The position numbers and the translations under genes are program-made. A DNA stretch of 10,038 bases from a virus (lineage: Duplodnaviria; Heunggongvirae; Uroviricota; Caudoviricetes): the IMG/VR virus record IMGVR_UViG_2711768004_000011; one strand, written 5' to 3'. Of this stretch, positions 236-10,038 are shown one piece after another (within the stretch, counting starts at the first letter, position 1; the number at the start of each line of letters is the position of its first letter). Under the pieces are notes generated by a model. The model made no database searches. It saw only the letters and a list, made by a program, of their open reading frames with translations, and was not told the DNA's origin.

Positions 236-613
236 TCAAATCCCCAGTGAAGTCACCATTGTCCTGAGAACTTGCAGAACGTCATGATCATAACTTCCAT
301 CCAAACCGCGACGGCGAATTGCTTCTCGTATTACCGGAAGCAGTTCGCTGGAAATCTCGGTGCATATTTCACCTGATAATACGCTTGGCTCAAGTGAGAA
401 TATTGGTGAACTTACGGTCTTGGTCTCGACAGTTTCAGAGTCAGTGCCAACATTATAAAGCTCAACGAAAGCGGTCTTGATTTTCCGGGCCAGATCTTTT
501 GCTGGCTCGCTTGCAATATCTTTCCCGATTTCTCGCAGCACAGAATGCAATGTATGAGCTGCTGTTTTCTGTACATCAGACGGTAAATCTTTAAATTCCA
601 TCGTCAGCCTCAT
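236..613 (-). CDS. hypothetical small phage protein (early-left operon); likely true start at internal ATG (601) preceded by GAGG
   Basis: 125-aa ORF on the minus strand. The internal start MEFKDLPSDVQ... has GAGG 6 nt upstream. The ORF-track start at 613 overlaps the upstream gene's stop (TGATG). No family recognised from sequence alone. Confidence 0.5.
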   Translation of the reverse strand: MRLTMEFKDLPSDVQKTAAHTLHSVLREIGKDIASEPAKDLARKIKTAFVELYNVGTDSETVETKTVSSPIFSLEPSVLSGEICTEISSELLPVIREAIRRRGLDGSYDHDVLQVLRTMVTSLGI

Positions 614-819: not shown

Positions 820-946
820 AGTTAAAGATTGAACCCTGCCGTCATGTTCTTACGCCTCGGGCTGGCTACTTAACCCCTGACCACTGTCTGGTAACTCGAA
901 GTATTGCCCTGCATTCTGTGGGGCGGGGTGGGTTGACGCCTGAAAC

Positions 947-989
947 AATAGCATCATTATTTTTTTTTGATGTAAATAGCATCGCTATT
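947..989. promoter_or_regulatory. operator-like palindromes (putative O_L): AATAGCATCATTATT (947-961) and AATAGCATCGCTATT (975-989)
   Basis: 975-989 is a perfect inverted repeat, AATAGC-ATC-GCTATT. It is nearly identical to the palindrome at 2086-2100 on the other side of the repressor operon. 947-961 shares the AATAGCATC half. Confidence 0.4.
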
Positions 990-1002: not shown

Positions 1003-1030
1003 GCAAGAAAAAACCACCCTAAGGTGGTTC
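1003..1030 (-). terminator. Rho-independent terminator candidate downstream of the repressor-antitoxin-toxin operon
   Basis: Stem ACCACC (1013-1018) pairs with GGTGGT (1023-1028) around a CTAA loop. On the minus strand the hairpin is followed by a T-run (plus-strand A-run 1006-1012), 16 nt past the parE stop. Confidence 0.5.
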
Positions 1031-1045
1031 TGTCGGCGGGAATAA

Positions 1046-1336
1046 TTAACTGTTTTTGCCTGGATACTGTCTTCGAGAATGCACAATATTTACTACTTCT
1101 ATGCTTGATGCTGTTACTCGGTAAAGGATGATGTAGTTAGGATGAGTTACAATTTCACGAAGACCAAGAACTCGCTCGCTTGGAGGATACAGGTAAGGAT
1201 GCTCTGTGAGCGGCAAAACGGATGTTTCAATTCGAATTTTCATTCTGCGTGCTGCCGCGGGATTTTCTTTAGCTATGTAGGCTACGATCTGGCGCAAATC
1301 ATCACGAGCAGATGGTAGCCATAAAACGGGTAACAT
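1046..1336 (-). CDS. parE: ParE/RelE-superfamily type II toxin (ParE2-like)
   Basis: 96-aa product MLPVLWLPSARDDLRQIVAYIAKENPAAARRM...HPNYIILYRV...VVNIVHSRRQYP has the characteristic ParE-family layout. Its start overlaps the stop of the upstream small ORF by 1 nt, the usual antitoxin-toxin arrangement. Confidence 0.8.
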   Translation of the reverse strand: MLPVLWLPSARDDLRQIVAYIAKENPAAARRMKIRIETSVLPLTEHPYLYPPSERVLGLREIVTHPNYIILYRVTASSIEVVNIVHSRRQYPGKNS

Positions 1337-1530
1337 TATTCACCTCTGTGAGTTGCAGCAGCAATTTGGGCAATAATTTGTTCCATTTCCGCCATTACCT
1401 CATCATGCGGAATCGCCGGGCGGGGATCCGCGAGGCTTGCTGCTACTTTGGCCCGCAGCCATTCGTTGTAACTATTTTCTTGCTCAACTGTCTCAAATTC
1501 TGAAACCATTGGGGAAAGGACTGTACTCAT
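1336..1530 (-). CDS. small antitoxin partner of ParE (PaaA2-like)
   Basis: 64-aa acidic ORF immediately upstream of and coupled to the ParE-like gene. A strong RBS (GAGGAG) sits 7 nt before the ATG. The sequence ...SPMVSEFETVEQENSYNEWLRAKVAASLADPRPAIPHDEV... resembles the PaaA2 antitoxin as I recall it. Confidence 0.65.
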   Translation of the reverse strand: MSTVLSPMVSEFETVEQENSYNEWLRAKVAASLADPRPAIPHDEVMAEMEQIIAQIAAATHRGE

Positions 1531-1549
1531 TTTACATATCTCCTCTGAT

Positions 1550-2080
1550 TTAGGCGCGACGGCCTTTTTGTGCAGCTAACCACCGCGCAACCGTACGATC
1601 CATTGATTCTTTTTTATCTTTCATCTCCTGAAGCATGTGTTCTTGATCTTCTTTCGGAAAAGCTCTGAACGTATGGATTAAATCTCGTTCCATCGGCTCT
1701 ACGGCAAACGGTAGTTCATCCTCTGTTTGTTCTGTGTCTGCTGGTAATGCGACTATGTTATCTTGCTGTGGTTCTCGACAATACATCCTTGCAATTTGCA
1801 GCAAATCTACCATGTCTGGCCTGATTGACTCAGGGGGAACTTTCAGTAAGCCAGCAAACTTTAGAACAGCCTCAAGGTTTAGTGGGGTTTGACCATTTAG
1901 GTAGTGACTTACCGCCCCTTGTGTTGAAAACCCCATAATTTCCGCCGCACGTTCCTGAGTCAATCCCAACTGAGATTTCTTTGCCATCCAGATTTCTTTC
2001 AGTCTTCTGGCGGCGTTGAGGTCGGTGTCTGACAATGATTTTCTTTTCATACATCCAATTCTAATAAGATTGCTAATCAC
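1550..2080 (-). CDS. CI-like HTH (XRE-family) repressor without S24 peptidase domain; PaaR2-like regulator
   Basis: 176-aa product with a classical HTH: LGLTQERAAEIMGFSTQGAVSHYLNGQTPLNLEAVLKFAGLL. It is divergent from the Cro-like gene and heads the antitoxin-toxin operon with a 19-nt gap. The C-terminal half shows no Ser/Lys peptidase motif. Confidence 0.7.
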   Translation of the reverse strand: MISNLIRIGCMKRKSLSDTDLNAARRLKEIWMAKKSQLGLTQERAAEIMGFSTQGAVSHYLNGQTPLNLEAVLKFAGLLKVPPESIRPDMVDLLQIARMYCREPQQDNIVALPADTEQTEDELPFAVEPMERDLIHTFRAFPKEDQEHMLQEMKDKKESMDRTVARWLAAQKGRRA

Positions 2081-2085
2081 TTTGA

Positions 2086-2125
2086 AATAGTATCACTATT
2101 TACTTTTAAAAATAACAGTGCTATT
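2086..2125. promoter_or_regulatory. divergent operator/promoter region (putative O_R): AATAGTATCACTATT (2086-2100) and AATAACAGTGCTATT (2111-2125)
   Basis: Palindrome AATAGT-ATC-ACTATT with AATAG/CTATT arms, and a second AATA...CTATT site 25 bp away. They sit in the 81-bp gap between the divergent repressor and Cro-like genes, and the motif matches 975-989. Confidence 0.45.
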
Positions 2126-2161: not shown

Positions 2162-2425
2162 ATGAATCTTGGAGAATATTTGCATCATTTTCATATAACC
2201 CAGAGTTCATTTGCTGAGATTGTTGGCGCATCCCAAGGGATGGTCAGCCACGTTATAACGGGGCGTGCAAAACTTACAGGAGAAAAAATATTACGTTGGT
2301 GTGAAGCAACGGGATGGGTGGTGACCCCACATGAGATTGACAGTAAAACCTACCCCAACCCAACTGACGGCTTGCCTGCTGAGTTTCAGGCTAACACACA
2401 ACCATCGGCGGGGGTTGATTCATGA
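2162..2425 (+). CDS. Cro/YdaS-like HTH regulator (ORF-track start is TTG at 2135; ATG at 2162 more likely)
   Basis: Product MNLGEYLHHFHITQSSFAEIVGASQGMVSHVITGRAKLTGEKILRWCEATGWVVTPHEI... has an HTH pattern typical of Cro/YdaS-family proteins. It is divergent from the repressor and coupled to the next gene through an ATGA overlap. Confidence 0.65.
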   Translation: MNLGEYLHHFHITQSSFAEIVGASQGMVSHVITGRAKLTGEKILRWCEATGWVVTPHEIDSKTYPNPTDGLPAEFQANTQPSAGVDS

Positions 2426-3989: not shown

Positions 3990-5071
3990 ATGAAAAACAT
4001 TGCGGCAGCCGGGGTTCTTGAACGTATTCACAGACTTGCACCACAGGGGGCGGTTCCACCGTACCGGACGGTGGAGGAGTGGCGGGNNNNNNNNNNNNNN
4101 NNNNNNNNNNNNNNNNNNNNNNNNNNNNNNNNNNNNNNNNNNNNNNNNNNNNNNNNNNNNNNNNNNNNNNNNNNNNNNNNNNNNNNNNNNNNNNNNNNNN
4201 NNNNNNNNNNNNNNNNNNNNNNNNNNNNNNNNNNNNNNNNNNNNNNNNNNNNNNNNNNNNNNNNNNNNNNNNNNNNNNNNNNNNNNNNNNNNNNNNNNNN
4301 NNNNNNNNNNNNNNNNNNNNNNNNNNNNNNNNNNNNNNNNNNNNNNNNNNNNNNNNNNNNNNNNNNNNNNNNNNNNNNNNNNNNNNNNNNNNNNNNNNNN
4401 NNNNNNNNNNNNNNNNNNNNNNNNNNNNNNNNNNNNNNNNNNNNNNNNNNNNNNNNNNNNNNNNNNNNNNNNNNNNNNNNNNNNNNNNNNNNNNNNNNNN
4501 NNNNNNNNNNNNNNNNNNNNNNNNNNNNNNNNNNNNNNNNNNNNNNNNNNNNNNNNNNNNNNNNNNNNNNNNNNNNNNNNNNNNNNNNCAGGCCAAATCC
4601 ATAGCTGACGAACTGATGACCGGGTGCACGAATTTTGTGTTCAGCGGTAAAACCGGCACCGGGAAAAATCACCTTGCAGCGGCGATGGGTAACCGGCTGA
4701 TGGCGAAGGGGCGCAGCGTGATTATCGTCACCGAGTCTGATGTCATGAGCGTGTTGCATGACAGCTACGACAACGGCAAATCCGGTGAAAAATTTTTACA
4801 GGAGCTTTGCGGGGTTGATTTGCTGGTCCTGGATGAAATAGGCATTCAGCGGGAGACGAAAAACGAGCAGGTGGTATTGCACCAGATAATTGATCGCCGG
4901 ACAGCATCACTGTGCAGTGTCGGGATGTTAACAAACCTGAATCATGCCGCAATGAGCACGCTTCTTGGTGAGAGGATTATGGACCGCATGACCATGAACG
5001 GTTGTCGGTGGGTGACGTTTAACTGGGATAGCTGGCGTTCAAATGTCAGCTTTCCGGGAGTTGTGAAGTAA
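3990..5071 (+). CDS. DnaC-like replicative helicase loader (lambda P analogue; Rac YdaV-like), interrupted by an assembly gap
   Basis: N-terminus MKNIAAAGVLERIHRL resembles E. coli DnaC (MKNVGDLMQRL...). The post-gap part carries Walker A GKTGTGKNHLAAAMG and Walker B LLVLDEIG. The C-terminus ...WVTFNWDSWRSNV matches the DnaC C-terminus as I recall it. The two parts are in different frames across the N-run. Confidence 0.8.
4087..4588. other. assembly gap (502 N)
   Basis: Uninterrupted run of N from 4087 to 4588. Confidence 0.99.
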
Positions 5072-6256: not shown

Positions 6257-6313
6257 GTGAAATTAGCTATCAGGCTTCAATTACCGCTGGCATTCGCATC
6301 AAAGGAGAGGAGC

Positions 6314-6670
6314 ATGGAAATAAAACCAGAAGATGAGTTAAGCAATATTGTTTTATTTCCGGTAAAAGAGGATAACCCTCGTAATCAGGTTAATTTTCTT
6401 TATGAGCCATCGGAAAGACCATATTGCCATCACGCTTCTGTCCGGGTTGACGAAAAAGAGCGTCAGGTCCGCTGTAAAATTTGCGGTGCAGTTGTGGAGC
6501 CATTTGACTGGATGCTCTCTGTGGCGAAAAGAGAAACCAGACTGGCAGATGATGTAAGGCTCTTGCGCCAGGAGGAGCGGGAAAGGCGAAAAAATATAGA
6601 AAAGCTAATCCAGATTGAGCGTAATGCGAAAGCGCGGATACGCAGGGTGACAAAATATAGCCCCGAATAA
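6314..6670 (+). CDS. hypothetical small protein with putative zinc-ribbon (C-H-H...C-K-I-C) and a basic coiled C-terminus
   Basis: ATG at 6314 is preceded by a strong RBS (AAGGAGAGG); the ORF track begins at GTG 6257. Contains the motif PYCHHASVRVDEKERQVRCKICG. Confidence 0.5.
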   Translation: MEIKPEDELSNIVLFPVKEDNPRNQVNFLYEPSERPYCHHASVRVDEKERQVRCKICGAVVEPFDWMLSVAKRETRLADDVRLLRQEERERRKNIEKLIQIERNAKARIRRVTKYSPE

Positions 6671-6884: not shown

Positions 6885-8717
6885 ATGGCCCGCATGTTTG
6901 ATACATTAGGATTTTACATTATGAATGTGCAACATTTTGATTTTTTTACAGATAATGAGTTTTCTAATCTGGAAAGATATCAAACTTGTAAAGCCATGGC
7001 CAAAGGTTATGCGGGCAATTACAAAACCGGGCAGTCAAGGTTGATGCATGCCCGCTCATACTGCTTCAGCATCGTAGCTGCATATTGGGATACCCTTGCA
7101 AAAAAGCAAAAAAGCAGCATTAAAATGAGGGCAGTACCGCACACTGTTTACATAGAAGACATTCCATGTGATGCACGCGAGCTCGCTGAACGAACAGGTG
7201 AGCTTATTGCTCAATTTCCGGCGGAGGACGCTGGATATCTGATTGGGTCAATTTATACGGTAATGCTGCCATCCGCTTACCGTTCGGAATTGGGGGCTTA
7301 CTATACCCCCCCACCTTTGGTAGCGCGTCTCTTGGACCTGGCTGAAAAGTCTGGTGTTGATTTTTCTCATGCATCGGTTATTGATCCTGCGTGTGGTGGC
7401 GGTGCATTTTTGGCACCAGTAGCCATTCGAATGTTAAAAAAAGACAAGGGGTCTTCCCCTGAATGGATGTTGAGGAGAATCAGTCGTCGTTTAAAGGGGA
7501 TAGAGATCGATCCATTTGCGGCTTGGATGAGTTTGGTATTGCTCGAATCTGTACTAATGCCACTATGTGTAAAGGTAAAACGTAGATTGCCTGAAGATAC
7601 AATTATTGTTGCTGATGCGCTTCAGCAAGATAAATTTTCTGGTTATGATCTTGTGGTAGGGAATCCGCCTTACGGACGTGTCACTCTCGATATTAAAACG
7701 AGAGAAAAATATTCTCGTTCGTTATTTGGTCATGCAAATCTATATGGATTGTTCACCGACTTAGCTGTTCGCATGGTTAAAGAGAAAACAGGAGTTATTG
7801 CATTTCTTACGCCAACTTCTTTTCTTGGTGGGCAGTATTTCACCGCGCTGCGAACCCTTTTGACCGAAAAAACTACTCCGTATGCCCTTGATTTCGTCAC
7901 TGACAGGGATGGGGTCTTTGACGATGTTCTCCAGGAAACAATGTTGACAGCATTCAAGGCGGGAGAACATAAAGTTCGGGCCCAGGTATCCTCACTTGTC
8001 CCTAAGGGGTTGAACAAAGCAAAAATTGAGAAAATAGGTAATGTTGATATAGAAAAAGGTGGAGCAACGTGGCTTTTGCCACGCGTTAAAGATGATGCCT
8101 GTTTTCTTAATGTATTAAAACAGATGTCTACGCGTTTAGCTGATCTGGGATACTCAGTCTCTACAGGTCAGTTAGTCTGGAATCGATTTAAGTCGCAGTT
8201 GCGTACGACGAAAGGAAAAAATAGCTACCCATTAGTCTGGGCGGAATCAATAACTTCAGCTGGTTTTCGTTTTAGTGCAGACAGAAAAAATCATGTTCCC
8301 TATATCGATATAACCCCACAACAGGGTTTCCTTGTGACAAAATCTGAATGTGTGCTTGTTCAGCGGACAACATCGAAGGAACAGGACAGAAGGATTTTAG
8401 CGGCAATTTTACCTCAGGGATTTATAGATGAAACTGGTGGCGTAGTAGTTGAAAACCATATTAATATTGTATATTCAAACGGATTGTTCTCTGCGGTTCG
8501 CCCTGATGTTATTGATATGCTACTTAATTCGCATGTTGTCGATCGGGCGTTCAGGTGTATAAGCGGAAGTGTTGCTGTTTCGGCCTATGAATTGAATTCA
8601 ATCCCGTTGCCTTCTCTGGAGCAGGTGATGGAGATTCAATCGTTAATTGATGCTGGCGTCCACAGACGGATTATTGAGAGAACTATCGCTGGTTTCTATG
8701 GAGTGATGATTGCATGA
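6885..8717 (+). CDS. gamma-class N6-adenine (amino) DNA methyltransferase, TaqI/Eco57I-like, with C-terminal target-recognition region; start may be ATG 6921
   Basis: Motif X-like GAYYTPPPLVARLL (~7297-7335), motif I VIDPACGGGAFL (~7383-7412) and motif IV VVGNPPYGRV (~7656-7682) occur in gamma-class order. They align with M.TaqI (ETPPEVV / LEPACAHGPFL / LGNPPYG) as I recall it. GC content is markedly lower than in the phage replication genes. Confidence 0.85.
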   Translation: MARMFDTLGFYIMNVQHFDFFTDNEFSNLERYQTCKAMAKGYAGNYKTGQSRLMHARSYCFSIVAAYWDTLAKKQKSSIKMRAVPHTVYIEDIPCDARELAERTGELIAQFPAEDAGYLIGSIYTVMLPSAYRSELGAYYTPPPLVARLLDLAEKSGVDFSHASVIDPACGGGAFLAPVAIRMLKKDKGSSPEWMLRRISRRLKGIEIDPFAAWMSLVLLESVLMPLCVKVKRRLPEDTIIVADALQQDKFSGYDLVVGNPPYGRVTLDIKTREKYSRSLFGHANLYGLFTDLAVRMVKEKTGVIAFLTPTSFLGGQYFTALRTLLTEKTTPYALDFVTDRDGVFDDVLQETMLTAFKAGEHKVRAQVSSLVPKGLNKAKIEKIGNVDIEKGGATWLLPRVKDDACFLNVLKQMSTRLADLGYSVSTGQLVWNRFKSQLRTTKGKNSYPLVWAESITSAGFRFSADRKNHVPYIDITPQQGFLVTKSECVLVQRTTSKEQDRRILAAILPQGFIDETGGVVVENHINIVYSNGLFSAVRPDVIDMLLNSHVVDRAFRCISGSVAVSAYELNSIPLPSLEQVMEIQSLIDAGVHRRIIERTIAGFYGVMIA

Positions 8718-9796
8718 ATCTGCCTGTTGTTCCCCCATTGAATGTTATCCGGGAAAGATTACAATTAATTTTCCCTGAAGGGACTGAGAATCGTGGATAT
8801 TTAATTCGGGAAATAGCTGCAAAAACAATTTTTGTCATGTTTTATGCTGGTGCGGTTGAGGGGCTGGGGCGATGGATAAGGCCCAGCCAGGTTGTAAGTA
8901 TGGGAGATTCGCAGGCTGCTCTTACTGATGATGCGTCCAGAGAAAGCTGGGTAAAGATGACTTTCTCTAAACAAAAGATAAGGCCTGCTGATGCATGGTA
9001 TGCGGAAAATACGCGTGAGCCAATACGTGATGAAACTATAAAAAATGGCCTAATACCTTGCAATGCAATTGTTGAGCGTAAAGGTATACCCACCACATCC
9101 TCTCGTCCTCGTTACAGTTTGAATCGCTCTTTTGCAGCACTCTTTGATGCCGGGCTTGAAGGAGATTCGCTGCTGAGTGCAATAAGTTCCTGGCAAGAAA
9201 ATCATTTGAACAAAGCCGCTCTTGCTAGGTTGCGTTTATTGAAATCAGGGGCAGTGATTGCTGCTGATGCCGTAGTCGTCACTTTCCCAAATGGAGAGAA
9301 GAGAACTTTAGCTCCGGGCCCGTCAAGTACAATAGCTAAGGCCGTCATCGAAGTTTTTGCTCCTAATTTTCTTAAGAATCCAACTGTGCTCTGGTTGTCT
9401 GAATCCGGGAATAAAGTTGTTGCTCAGGATGATGTATTGGCAAAAGCATTGGGGCTGAATATTGATGCCTCAAAAGCACTTCCAGATATTATTTTGATTG
9501 ATTTGGGAGAGGACCGAACGGGTTCGGACATGCTTGTAGTTTTCACTGAAGTAGTTGCGACAGATGGGCCTATAAACAGGGAACGAAAAGTTACTCTCAC
9601 TCATTTGGCTATTGACGCTGGGTTCAGCGAGAAAAATCTTGCATTCCTTACGGCATTTATGGACAGAAGTGCTCTGCCTTTTAAAAAGGCAATACCAGAA
9701 TTGGCGTGGGGATCTTATGCATGGTTTGCTTCTGAACCGGAGCACTTAATTGATCTTCGGGATGGTTATCCGGTAAAGATCAGCCAGAGAAAATGA
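8714..9796 (+). CDS. partner of the methyltransferase: putative restriction endonuclease (possibly BsuBI/PstI-like); function not established
   Basis: 360-aa ORF whose ATG overlaps the MTase stop (ATGA at 8714-8717), with the same low-GC composition. A possible degenerate nuclease core lies at ALPDIILIDLGEDRTGSDMLVVFTEVVATDG. The family assignment is from weak recall, not a search. Confidence 0.5.
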   Translation: MNLPVVPPLNVIRERLQLIFPEGTENRGYLIREIAAKTIFVMFYAGAVEGLGRWIRPSQVVSMGDSQAALTDDASRESWVKMTFSKQKIRPADAWYAENTREPIRDETIKNGLIPCNAIVERKGIPTTSSRPRYSLNRSFAALFDAGLEGDSLLSAISSWQENHLNKAALARLRLLKSGAVIAADAVVVTFPNGEKRTLAPGPSSTIAKAVIEVFAPNFLKNPTVLWLSESGNKVVAQDDVLAKALGLNIDASKALPDIILIDLGEDRTGSDMLVVFTEVVATDGPINRERKVTLTHLAIDAGFSEKNLAFLTAFMDRSALPFKKAIPELAWGSYAWFASEPEHLIDLRDGYPVKISQRK

Positions 9797-9948
9797 CCAA
9801 AGTTTGATATCCGCCACGCCCTGAAGGATGGGGGTTTTACGGTGCACTGGATAAAAAATCGGTTTCATAGATTTGCCCACCGTGGTATACGCCTGCGATA
9901 AAAACTTTATTGTCATCAACGGCAAAAGCAATAATTGTTCTGTGGCGG

Positions 9949-10038
9949 GGTGATGCTGCCAACTTACTGATTTAGTGTATGATGGTGTTTTTGAGGTGCT
10001 CCAGTGGCTTCTGTTTCTATCAGCTGTCCCTCCTGTTC
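9949..10038 (+). mobile_element. IS1 left-end fragment (IRL and start of element); continues beyond the right window edge
   Basis: GGTGATGCTGCCAACTTACTGATTTAGTGTATGATGGTGTTTTTGAGGTGCTCCAGTGGCTTCTGTTTCTATCAGCTGTCCCTCCTGTTC matches the IS1 left terminus as I recall it. It is in the same orientation as the fragment at 1-103. Confidence 0.85.

Follow-up and report, generated by a model that had tools for sequence, protein, structure and literature searches.

A chimeric repressor with a lambda-CI-type DNA-binding domain in a PaaR-PaaA-ParE-type toxin-antitoxin locus of a degraded Shigella sonnei prophage

The closest described systems to the locus analysed here are two PaaR-PaaA-ParE systems of E. 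coli O157:H7, i.e. paaR2-paaA2-parE2 of CP-933P/Sp12, which is also present in phage Evi, and a second system (EDL933/ATCC 43894, 1.25 Mb), which by elimination we take to be the CP-933M paaR1-paaA1-parE1 of Hallez et al. 2010. In CP-933P, the toxin-antitoxin (TA) pair is co-expressed with a CI-like repressor (Jurenas et al. mBio 2021, PMC8630535; also PMC9986795), and CI-like regulation, leaderless translation and bistability as well as ClpXP/ClpAP-dependent post-segregational killing and SOS induction have been described for the homologous system (PMC8630535; PMC4803016). That paaR2 is leaderless was shown experimentally, and no activation of ParE2 was seen in either transcriptional state of CP-933P (PMC8630535). 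Toxicity, neutralization by PaaA, the protease-labile antitoxin and post-segregational killing are known from the O157:H7 systems only (PMC8630535; PMC4803016). Classical parDE systems autoregulate, whereas in the PaaA-type system a separate repressor takes over this regulation (PMC8630535). The literature on PaaA2 together with Shigella yielded reviews only and no account of the locus described below.

The window, i.e. the whole stretch of 10,038 nucleotides that was analysed, represents what is left of a Qin/CP-933-like lambdoid prophage in Shigella sonnei, a degraded remnant of 9.8 kb that is bounded by IS1. On the minus strand, three ORFs for a regulator, an antitoxin and a toxin form a compact operon (Table 1), and we consider it very probable that they constitute a tripartite paaR-paaA-parE type II TA operon in the position of cI-rexA-rexB. 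A sequence-only reading of the window had described three genes on the same strand with 19-nt and 1-nt junctions, a terminator right after the toxin and a match to the three-component regulator-antitoxin-toxin architecture, and each of these elements was recovered, with the toxin, the antitoxin and the C-terminal domain of the regulator homologous to their counterparts. The 19-nt gap between the paaR stop codon (1552-1550) and the paaA ATG (1530) contains a GAGGAG Shine-Dalgarno sequence, and scanning of this gap revealed no terminator and no convincing promoter; the stop codon of paaA shares 1 nt with the start codon of parE (TAATG). The hairpin and T-run behind parE were absent from the list of a simple terminator scan, and folding was therefore used instead; the hairpin has a dG of -15.1 kcal/mol (z -3.0, equalled by 1 of 200 shuffles) and its stem is kept in relatives. 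The arrangement suggests that the three genes are co-transcribed.

Table 1. Coding and regulatory features of the locus, ordered by position; regulatory sites are predictions.
Feature	Position	Strand	Remarks
PL-like promoter TTTACA-N20-TATTGT	945-976	-	putative; read from the sequence
Putative OL operators AATAGCATCATTATT and AATAGCATCGCTATT	947-961 and 975-989		motif match
Intrinsic terminator-like hairpin and T-run	1007-1034	-	directly after parE stop; 9-bp stem
parE-type toxin gene, 96 aa	1046-1336	-	Pfam ParE_toxin PF05016, E 1.8e-17
paaA-type antitoxin gene, 64 aa	1336-1530	-	Pfam PaaA2 PF21217, E 3e-23
paaR-type repressor gene, 166 aa from ATG 2050 (most likely start)	1550-2050	-	HTH_3, E 9e-9
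Regulator N-terminal domain	residues 1-92		lambda-CI-type N-terminal domain
Regulator linker	residues 94-111		low confidence (pLDDT <50); next helix only from residue 119
Regulator C-terminal domain	residues 119-165		PaaR/DicA-type helical domain
PRM-like promoter TTCAAA-17-TAGAAT	2058-2086	-	consensus match only; predicted start ~2051/2050
Putative OR3 AATAAGATTGCTAAT	2063-2077		2 mismatches; between PRM -35 and -10
Putative OR2 AATAGTATCACTATT	2086-2100		abuts PRM -35; centre ~-43 from ATG/TSS
PR-like promoter TTTACT-17-TATTAA	2099-2127	+	would drive ydaS-ydaT; read from the sequence
Putative OR1 AATAACAGTGCTATT	2111-2125		overlaps PR -10
ydaS, Cro analogue, 87 aa from ATG 2162	2162-2425	+	HTH_3, E 5e-4
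YdaT operator OM TTGATTCATGAAAATCAA	2415-2432		exact TTGATT-N6-AATCAA; spans ydaS stop and ydaT start
ydaT, CII analogue, 141 aa	2422-2847	+	PDB 8bt1 (CP-933P YdaT), E 3e-70

The Pfam assignments of all three proteins are far above chance, and RefSeq already labels the genes as ParE-family toxin, RelB-family antitoxin and HTH protein. The toxin can be aligned over its full length with crystallised ParE2 (PDB 5cw7_B; 67% identity over 93 aa, E 7e-37) and shares 86% identity with the ParE encoded by the second O157:H7 system. The antitoxin scores 81.9 bits against PF21217 (cut-off 27 bits) and 94 bits against NCBIfam NF050103 (E 3e-27, cut-off 50), and is 77% identical both to the PaaA2 structure PDB 3zbe (E 1.4e-23) and to the antitoxin of the second system. 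Alignment to PaaR2, PaaA2 and ParE2, the check proposed along with the original description, matches the toxin, the antitoxin and the C-terminal domain of the regulator. The ParE fold (PF05016) is common to this toxin and to the classical parDE systems of RK2, Caulobacter and Vibrio; in contrast, the classical antitoxin is an RHH ParD, whereas Pfam and NCBIfam profiles found no HTH or RHH domain and no ParD family match in the antitoxin of the window.

These observations bear on the alternative that paaA-parE is a conventional, autoregulated two-gene TA system of the parDE type and the HTH gene merely an adjacent prophage repressor, i.e. that there is no third component. Repressors with the same C-terminal domain exist without a downstream TA pair (tandem-HTH forms; DicA), which shows that the TA pair was inserted downstream of a repressor gene that already existed, and PaaA-ParE complexes are reported to partly repress the promoter alone (PMC4803016). 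However, PaaA is without a DNA-binding domain, the gap that separates it from paaR offers a Shine-Dalgarno sequence and no convincing promoter, the TA pair is present in 72/72 E. coli genomes with the immunity type of the window, and the studied homologues need PaaR for full repression (PMC4803016). We therefore regard a two-gene system as improbable and favor the tripartite operon. A sigma-70-like site within paaR (TTGACT-17-AATTAT, 1963-1935) was considered as a promoter for the TA pair and dropped given that such sites occur at chance number.

The regulator ORF is open back to a GTG at 2080, and the sequence-only reading accordingly listed a repressor of 176 aa (1550-2080). This ORF exists but is only the longest possible one, and the protein most likely starts at ATG 2050 and has 166 aa: (i) the RefSeq homologues begin at this ATG, (ii) in an O145:H28 relative the GTG is changed to GGG and the ATG is not preceded by any other in-frame start, and (iii) the position of the predicted promoter fits this start. 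In a sequence search against the PDB, the regulator matches the lambda repressor (1lmb, E 2.5e-9), and Foldseek with an AF2 model gave a TMt of 0.81-0.93, an rmsd of 1.1-2.1 A and 39-40% identity to the N-terminal domain of lambda cI. The acidic residues E33 and E37 of the regulator align with E34 and D38 of lambda, which are positive-control residues. The same domain does not align with the PaaR1/PaaR2 heads, and the PaaR2 N-terminal structures 7nkv and 8c3l are absent among its sequence and fold matches. The last 44-64 residues, on the other hand, are 52% identical to PaaR2 (E 5e-15) and 56% identical to the second O157:H7 paralogue (E 6e-23); full-length homology to PaaR2 is ruled out because the C-terminal domain alone aligns. 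The PaaR2 sequence for this comparison was not surfaced by a word-indexed protein search and was obtained from phage Evi by tblastn, where it was recognised by its published N-terminus MQKKE. Because the solved PaaR structures cover the N-terminal domain of PaaR2 (7nkv, 8c3k, 8c3l) and no full-length structure exists, the C-terminal fold is not comparable with an experimental structure. In total, these data show that the regulator is a natural chimera of a lambda-CI-type DNA-binding domain and a PaaR/DicA-type C-terminal domain. This lambda-CI-type head is the sole unusual feature of the operon.

A third relative of the C-terminal domain is DicA of the K-12 Qin prophage, which shares with the window the chromosomal neighbourhood (ydfZ ... 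ydfA, dicB, ydfE) and the position of the repressor. The C-terminus of DicA resembles that of the regulator; its N-terminal domain differs, and the match to the DicA family NF007257 is confined to the C-terminal 57 residues of the regulator with a score (32 bits, E 8.8e-8) far below the family cut-off of 101. We know of no TA pair behind dicA in Qin.

The kinship with lambda extends beyond the repressor head, which includes a basic N-terminal arm in addition to the aligned acidic patch residues. Putatively, the window shares with cI-rexA-rexB the tripartite OR layout, the position of OR2 beside the PRM -35 and a leaderless-compatible start; likewise, two accessory genes, in the window presumably co-transcribed, follow the repressor, and behind them lie a terminator and OL/PL in this order. 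On the other hand, the operators have another sequence, a ParE TA pair stands in the window where lambda has RexAB, and the counterpart of lambda CII is the POU-type YdaT. Moreover, CI has a C-terminal S24 autocleavage/oligomerisation domain, whereas Pfam profiles detect no Peptidase_S24 domain in the regulator, which is complete at residue 166 and has a C-terminal domain of two helices in the model; RecA-mediated induction is therefore not expected.

The candidate operators share the motif AATAG-N5-CTATT, for which there are 4 sites with at most one mismatch compared to 0.26 expected (0/200 shuffles), all of them confined to the two lambda-equivalent positions OR and OL. The full set includes a third OR site with 2 mismatches and two OL sites only; the former, OR3, is weak on its own and nearly invariant in relatives. 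The operator centres in OR are 25 and 23 bp apart, similar to lambda, in which they are 24 and 23 bp apart and OR2 is at -42. In the O145 relative, the repressor of which is 80% identical, the operator half-sites are conserved and the spacers differ, and the motif was not found in PaaR1- and PaaR2-type loci, which have repeats of their own. These patterns suggest that the chimeric repressor is paired with these sites.

The promoters were assigned with more caution, as the consensus scan returned a site count in the region equal to the chance expectation. The PRM-like match ends 7-8 nt before ATG 2050, which has no Shine-Dalgarno sequence before it, and the predicted start would coincide with the A of the paaR ATG, giving a leaderless transcript as for cI and paaR2. 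PR was missed by the scan because its second hexamer lacks T at position 6; it is proposed on the basis of its parallel architecture with PL. Expansion of A6 to A9 has lengthened the spacer of PL to 20 nt in the window; in the E. coli relatives it measures 17 nt. A plus-strand promoter-like site (933-960), which overlaps OL and is directed into the 3' end of parE, was set aside as chance or as a by-product of the AT richness around the operators.

On the divergent strand, the ydaS ORF is open from TTG 2135 and its start was placed as in the RefSeq homologue. YdaS matches the phrog_35 transcriptional repressors (E 8e-17) and is 36% identical to the YdaS-like protein of the second O157:H7 system; no similarity was found to the YdaS of phage Evi, which is of the CP-933P type. 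YdaT matches PDB 3c4r (E 4e-79) and the CII-like activators of phrog_163, and the TTGATT-N6-AATCAA sequence of its operator has been defined by footprinting (PMC9986795). The regulator occupies the place of cI as previously proposed: it diverges from ydaS-ydaT and lies upstream of replication genes.

Comparison with the O157:H7 systems shows where this locus departs from its relatives. The second system has the same gene order and junction style, a PaaA that resembles the one in the window including the C-terminal helix, and the same flanks, i.e. ydfA (DUF1391) and ydaS/ydaT. Given the similarity of this helix, the toxin of the window would be predicted to be cross-neutralised by PaaA1 but not by PaaA2. 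DNA homology extends over 622-1677 and 2351-2845, whereas positions 1678-2350 of the window have no similarity to this system in DNA or protein; this divergent segment comprises the N-terminal domain of the regulator, the operators and most of ydaS. Features shared with CP-933P are a three-gene operon in place of cI, ydaS-ydaT in divergent orientation with a highly similar YdaT and an identical OM operator, a repressor without an S24 peptidase domain and, putatively, a leaderless-compatible PRM. However, the C-terminal third of PaaA2 differs from that of the antitoxin in the window, the sequence of the PaaR2 N-terminal domain (PDB 7nkv) bears no relation to that of the regulator head, and the CP-933P operators are GTTTAGT-type repeats. 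Because the N-terminal domains differ, the operator logic of CP-933P with its four 18-bp palindromes is not directly transferable to this locus. According to the sequence-only reading, the TA pair lies within the immunity region and its expression goes along with that of the CI-like repressor; this agrees with the published work on CP-933P and is, for the same reason, not a new insight.

Based on the homology with CP-933P, we suggest a model in which the 166-aa repressor would bind AATAG-N5-CTATT at OR (2063-2125) and OL (947-989) by means of its lambda-CI-type domain, oligomerise via the helical C-terminal domain common to PaaR1, PaaR2 and DicA, and shut PR and with it ydaS-ydaT and the replication genes. 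With regard to oligomerisation, PaaR2 is reported to be an octamer. A leaderless PRM transcript would carry the repressor, paaA and parE together. YdaS, as the Cro analogue, would compete at OR, and YdaT, as the CII analogue, may act on TTGATT-N6-AATCAA at the ydaS/ydaT junction and thereby feed the operon leftward by a second route. PaaA, which has no DNA-binding domain, would wrap and neutralise ParE. Because PaaA would be protease-labile, loss of the cassette would leave free ParE, a DNA-damaging and SOS-inducing toxin, that kills the segregant or recombinant and in that way stabilises the element. Addiction by the TA pair is plausible in this model.

Alternatively, the TA pair could be mainly anti-phage, acting in abortive infection or superinfection exclusion in place of lambda RexAB rather than in addiction. 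Many prophage TA systems defend against phage, and a type II restriction-modification system is retained next to the TA pair in the same remnant, suggesting retention for defence. Moreover, behind the repressor the TA pair takes exactly the place of rexA-rexB (PMC9986795). Against this, PADLOC has no match for the toxin, the antitoxin or the regulator, which also leaves the abortive-infection potential proposed from the sequence without support; in addition, we found no experimental report of phage defence by PaaA-ParE in the literature covered, and the demonstrated phenotype is post-segregational killing. We consider a mainly defensive role unlikely and favor addiction.

The proposed tie to lysogeny maintenance holds in part. 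The TA pair does lie behind a CI-like repressor, but coupling to a phage lifecycle is vestigial because the element is an IS1-bounded remnant and the 20 kb examined contain no structural or lysis genes. Given this state of the element and the 20-nt spacer of PL, some of the circuit may no longer work. Taken further, the same two observations, together with the pseudogenisation for which Shigella genomes are known, could suggest that the whole cassette is an inert relic with genes that are intact by descent, a non-functional circuit and a silent or attenuated toxin. We find this scarcely probable: none of the five ORFs for regulation and TA is disrupted; preservation extends to the operators, the YdaT site, the Shine-Dalgarno sequence and the terminator; proteins identical to ParE and PaaA are found in an E. 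coli strain; and synonymous change is in excess (36 synonymous versus 12 non-synonymous codon changes between parE and its O145 homologue). Moreover, an antitoxin is not easily lost by a cell in which the toxin is intact.

We conclude that the locus is a known type of system with a swapped immunity specificity. Given that the system type, its regulation and its prophage position are all published, the discovery value of the locus itself is small. Its allele is nevertheless convenient for dissecting PaaR-type oligomerisation and PRM activation, as it combines a chimeric repressor with readable lambda-like operators. The persistence of the TA cassette across heteroimmune exchanges bears on the published idea that the TA guards the immunity region against replacement. 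The locus also marks a stable IS1-bounded island of S. sonnei with two potentially addictive modules, and an index of public assemblies has this exact repressor protein in about 6000 blocks.

More tentatively, it is possible, if rather doubtful, that paaA-parE and the C-terminal domain of the regulator form a conserved unit next to which immunity cassettes, consisting of the repressor DNA-binding head, the operators and the cro analogue, are swapped through recombination at fixed breakpoints (~1677 and 2351 in the window) among at least three heteroimmune types, and that the TA pair and the type II restriction-modification system act as two addiction modules, which could explain the survival of the island in S. 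sonnei. If true, the allele in the window would link PaaR-type repressors directly to lambda CI by sequence, and the two modules could explain the persistence of the 9.8-kb fragment in essentially all sequenced S. sonnei isolates.

The regulator, antitoxin and toxin genes that had been proposed to form an operon on the minus strand were all recovered at the expected coordinates and with the expected junctions: the regulator stop codon and the antitoxin ATG are separated by 19 nt containing a GAGGAG Shine-Dalgarno motif, the antitoxin stop and toxin start have one base in common (TAATG), and a hairpin and T-run follow the toxin. The toxin matches Pfam ParE_toxin (E 1.8e-17) and, end to end, ParE2 of E. 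coli O157 (PDB 5cw7_B, E 7e-37, 67% identity), and the antitoxin matches Pfam PaaA2 (E 3e-23), NCBIfam NF050103 (E 3e-27) and PaaA2 (PDB 3zbe, E 1.4e-23, 77% identity), so that both are related to the proteins that the sequence-only reading had named. Family profile and PDB sequence searches detected no DNA-binding domain in the antitoxin.

Features of the operon and its divergent neighbours (window coordinates)
Feature	Position	Strand or location	Size	Evidence
Hairpin, GC-rich, then T-run	1007-1034	3' of toxin stop	9 bp	-15.1 kcal/mol, z -3.0 (folding)
Toxin ORF	1046-1336	-	96 aa	
Antitoxin ORF	1336-1530	-	64 aa	
Regulator ORF, longest form	1550-2080	-	176 aa	
ydaS, Cro-like HTH gene	2162-2425	divergent from regulator		phrog_35
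ydaT	2422-2847	divergent from regulator		PDB 8bt1 (CP-933P YdaT), E 3e-70
Replication genes: O-like initiator and DnaC/IstB-like loader		past ydaT		initiator phrog_3729

The regulator ORF stands as proposed, but its start most likely lies at ATG 2050, giving a protein of 166 aa. This ATG is used by the RefSeq homologues, and the only promoter-like site upstream of the regulator, TTCAAA-17-TAGAAT (2086-2058), ends 7-8 nt 5' of it. The start at GTG 2080 (176 aa) is disfavoured by both observations and by the homologous locus of E. coli O145:H28, in which this codon reads GGG and no other in-frame start lies 5' of the ATG.

The regulator matches HTH_3, the lambda repressor N-terminal domain (1lmb) aligns with its residues 12-91 (E 2.5e-9), and the DicA C-terminus matches residues 116-172 of the 176-aa form with a score below the DicA family cut-off. 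An AlphaFold2 model (19-sequence alignment, mean pLDDT 79) places five helices within residues 8-90 and a two-helix C-terminal domain at 119-165, joined by a disordered linker (94-111). In a Foldseek search of the PDB with this model the ten best matches are all structures of the lambda cI N-terminal domain (35-40% identity, rmsd 1.1-2.1 A; TMt 0.81-0.93 for isolated-domain entries), and the solved PaaR2 N-terminal domain (7nkv/8c3l) is absent from the matches listed. The suggested relationship to PaaR2 holds for the C-terminal 44 residues (52% identity to PaaR2 of phage Evi) but not for the N-terminal domains, which are unalignable. An S24 peptidase domain was not found in the regulator and RecA-dependent self-cleavage is therefore not expected; PaaR2 has likewise been noted to be without this domain (PMC8630535). 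Some regulators of 244-255 aa (proteins P0013, P0020 and relatives) carry the lambda-CI-type head of the window, then a PaaR1-like second HTH, then the common C-terminal domain. Such tandem-HTH repressors lie opposite ydaS/ydaT-like genes, and Rha/ASH and KilR genes rather than paaA-parE are found downstream (loci L005-L007, 4001-4768).

The PaaR2-type locus was obtained from phage Evi (LR597642), the regulator of which begins with MQKKE, the experimentally determined PaaR2 N-terminus (PMC8630535), and the antitoxin of which is, over the aligned stretch, identical to PaaA2 in the PDB except for one conservative K/R change. In the phage Evi record paaR2 and paaA2 are called and the ParE2-type toxin gene is not annotated (LR597642.1 24917-25192, corresponding to 4001-4276 of L004); the tripartite system is thus also present in a sequenced phage genome. 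E. coli ATCC 43894, an EDL933-derived genome, holds two paaA-parE loci, and that at 1.25 Mb (L003) is, by elimination, presumably the CP-933M paralogue mentioned in PMC8630535. Its ParE and PaaA are 86% and 77% identical to those of the window, and the last 64 residues of its 133-aa regulator are 56% identical. DNA homology between the window and L003 covers 622-1677 and 2351-2845 with none between; therefore, the exchanged cassette consists of the head of the repressor, the operators and the larger part of ydaS, and the regulator C-terminal domain, paaA, parE and ydaT are kept. Judged from this comparison, the apparent exchange is a classic lambdoid 'imm' swap.

Four copies of AATAG-N5-CTATT (at most one mismatch) are present in the 10-kb window, at 947, 975, 2086 and 2111, exactly at the lambda-equivalent OL and OR positions; 0.26 are expected by chance and none of 200 shuffles reached four. 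A third, weaker putative OR site lies at 2063-2077. From the sequence, the centre-to-centre distances of the putative OR sites are 25 and 23 bp. OR1 overlaps a PR-like TTTACT-17-TATTAA, OR2 abuts the PRM -35 with its centre at approximately -43 from the ATG, and OR3 falls within PRM, a spacing and promoter overlap that correspond to the lambda arrangement. Acidic residues of the regulator align with E34 and D38 of lambda, which are positive-control residues, and probably correspond to them. In the O145 relative, the repressor of which is 80% identical, the operator half-sites are kept and the central bases vary; the motif was not found in PaaR1- and PaaR2-type loci, which bear other repeats, including the GTTTAGT type reported for CP-933P (PMC8630535). 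This half-site conservation and absence from the other loci suggest that the sites are operators of the regulator. The YdaT operator defined by footprinting, TTGATT-N6-AATCAA (PMC9986795), occurs with zero mismatches at 2415-2432, spanning the ydaS/ydaT junction. Within paaR lie a sigma-70-like TTGACT-17-AATTAT (1935-1963, minus strand) and a perfect 12-nt inverted repeat (1823-1834/1954-1965, GATTGACTCAGG / CCTGAGTCAATC, arms 119 nt apart), either of which could be due to chance or serve paaA-parE as an internal promoter or as a regulatory element.

The spacer of the PL-like TTTACA...TATTGT (945-976, minus strand) is 20 nt in the window versus 17 nt in E. coli RMDEC465 and O145:H28 RM12761. 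The difference is a 3-bp homopolymer expansion (A6 to A9), with OL1-OL2 spacing going from 25 to 28 bp, and possibly inactivates PL in S. sonnei. Decay of the element, including this expansion, makes it possible that the cassette is an inert relic, but five ORFs are intact and the sites are preserved, which such a view does not readily explain. Relative to the O145 homologues, synonymous codon changes exceed non-synonymous ones in parE (36 versus 12) and paaR (56 versus 34), consistent with maintained function.

CP151357.1 matches the window at 100% identity and HE616528.1 at 99.9%; among named proteins, the closest relatives are those of Shigella sonnei. The element spans ~9.8 kb with IS1 ends at 1-109 and 9948-10038, in a ydfZ ... 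dicB/ydfE neighbourhood, the Qin position of E. coli K-12. No structural or lysis genes were found in the 20 kb examined, and therefore the element is a prophage remnant. The regulator sits at the cI-like location, as proposed, but lysogeny maintenance is vestigial in this IS1-bounded remnant. The position of the TA pair makes a RexAB-like anti-phage role attractive, but such a role finds support neither in PADLOC nor in the literature covered.

Four complete genomes (L008-L011) share the ~9.8-kb fragment at 99.9-100% identity; the IS1 termini recur in the neighbourhood, and on the flanks IS1, IS3-type and IS605-type elements have rearranged the dicB, Rha and ydfE segments in varying ways. A 125-aa conserved phage ORF (phrog_33007; 236-613, minus strand) follows ydfA near the inner edge of the left IS1, and a 137-aa one (6257-6670, plus strand) with a weak zinc-ribbon match directly precedes a complete type II restriction-modification pair (6885-9796, plus strand). 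The latter comprises a 610-aa Eco57I/N6_Mtase-type methyltransferase (PADLOC MTase_II, E 2e-300) and, in an overlapping gene, a 360-aa BsuBI/PstI-family endonuclease (REase_II, E 3e-128). This pair lies on the PR-side strand at 5 kb from the TA genes and is potentially a second module for addiction or defence. The N run at 4087-4588 (502 N) stands for only 167 nt in the otherwise identical CP151357.1; ORFs crossing it, such as 4079-5071 and 3990-4604, are spurious, and the true gene is that of the 248-aa DnaC/IstB-like loader. An index of public assemblies contains ~6000 blocks with precisely this regulator protein. In a set of 5426 complete E. coli genomes, 842 have a detectable paaA-parE pair and ~600 the PaaR2-type locus; the immunity type of the window is present in 72, all of which also have the TA pair.

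Whether the system is truly tripartite depends in part on how the term is defined: the same C-terminal domain is also found in regulators that have no TA genes, making the TA pair an insertion behind a prophage repressor, as already held by Jurenas et al. (PMC8630535). The interpretation as a three-component system like paaR2-paaA2-parE2 is correct, yet it rediscovers known biology, as operon architecture, prophage position and logic are already published. In the literature searched, we found no description of the window allele, with its lambda-CI-type head, PaaR/DicA-type tail and own operator set, or of such an allele in an IS1-bounded S. sonnei remnant with a BsuBI/PstI-type restriction-modification system. 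The window itself provides anatomy and homologies; each functional step for its allele we infer from the homologous CP-933P locus, which has been dissected by experiment (PMC8630535), and from the summary that PMC4803016 gives of Hallez et al. 2010. In this model, the repressor would bind OR and OL and repress both PR and PL; PRM, which it may activate when occupancy is low, would give a leaderless paaR-paaA-parE transcript; YdaS would compete at OR and YdaT would open a second, leftward promoter. PaaA would neutralise ParE and be degraded by ClpXP and ClpAP, and loss of the cassette would free ParE, leading to SOS induction and killing and, in that way, to addiction.
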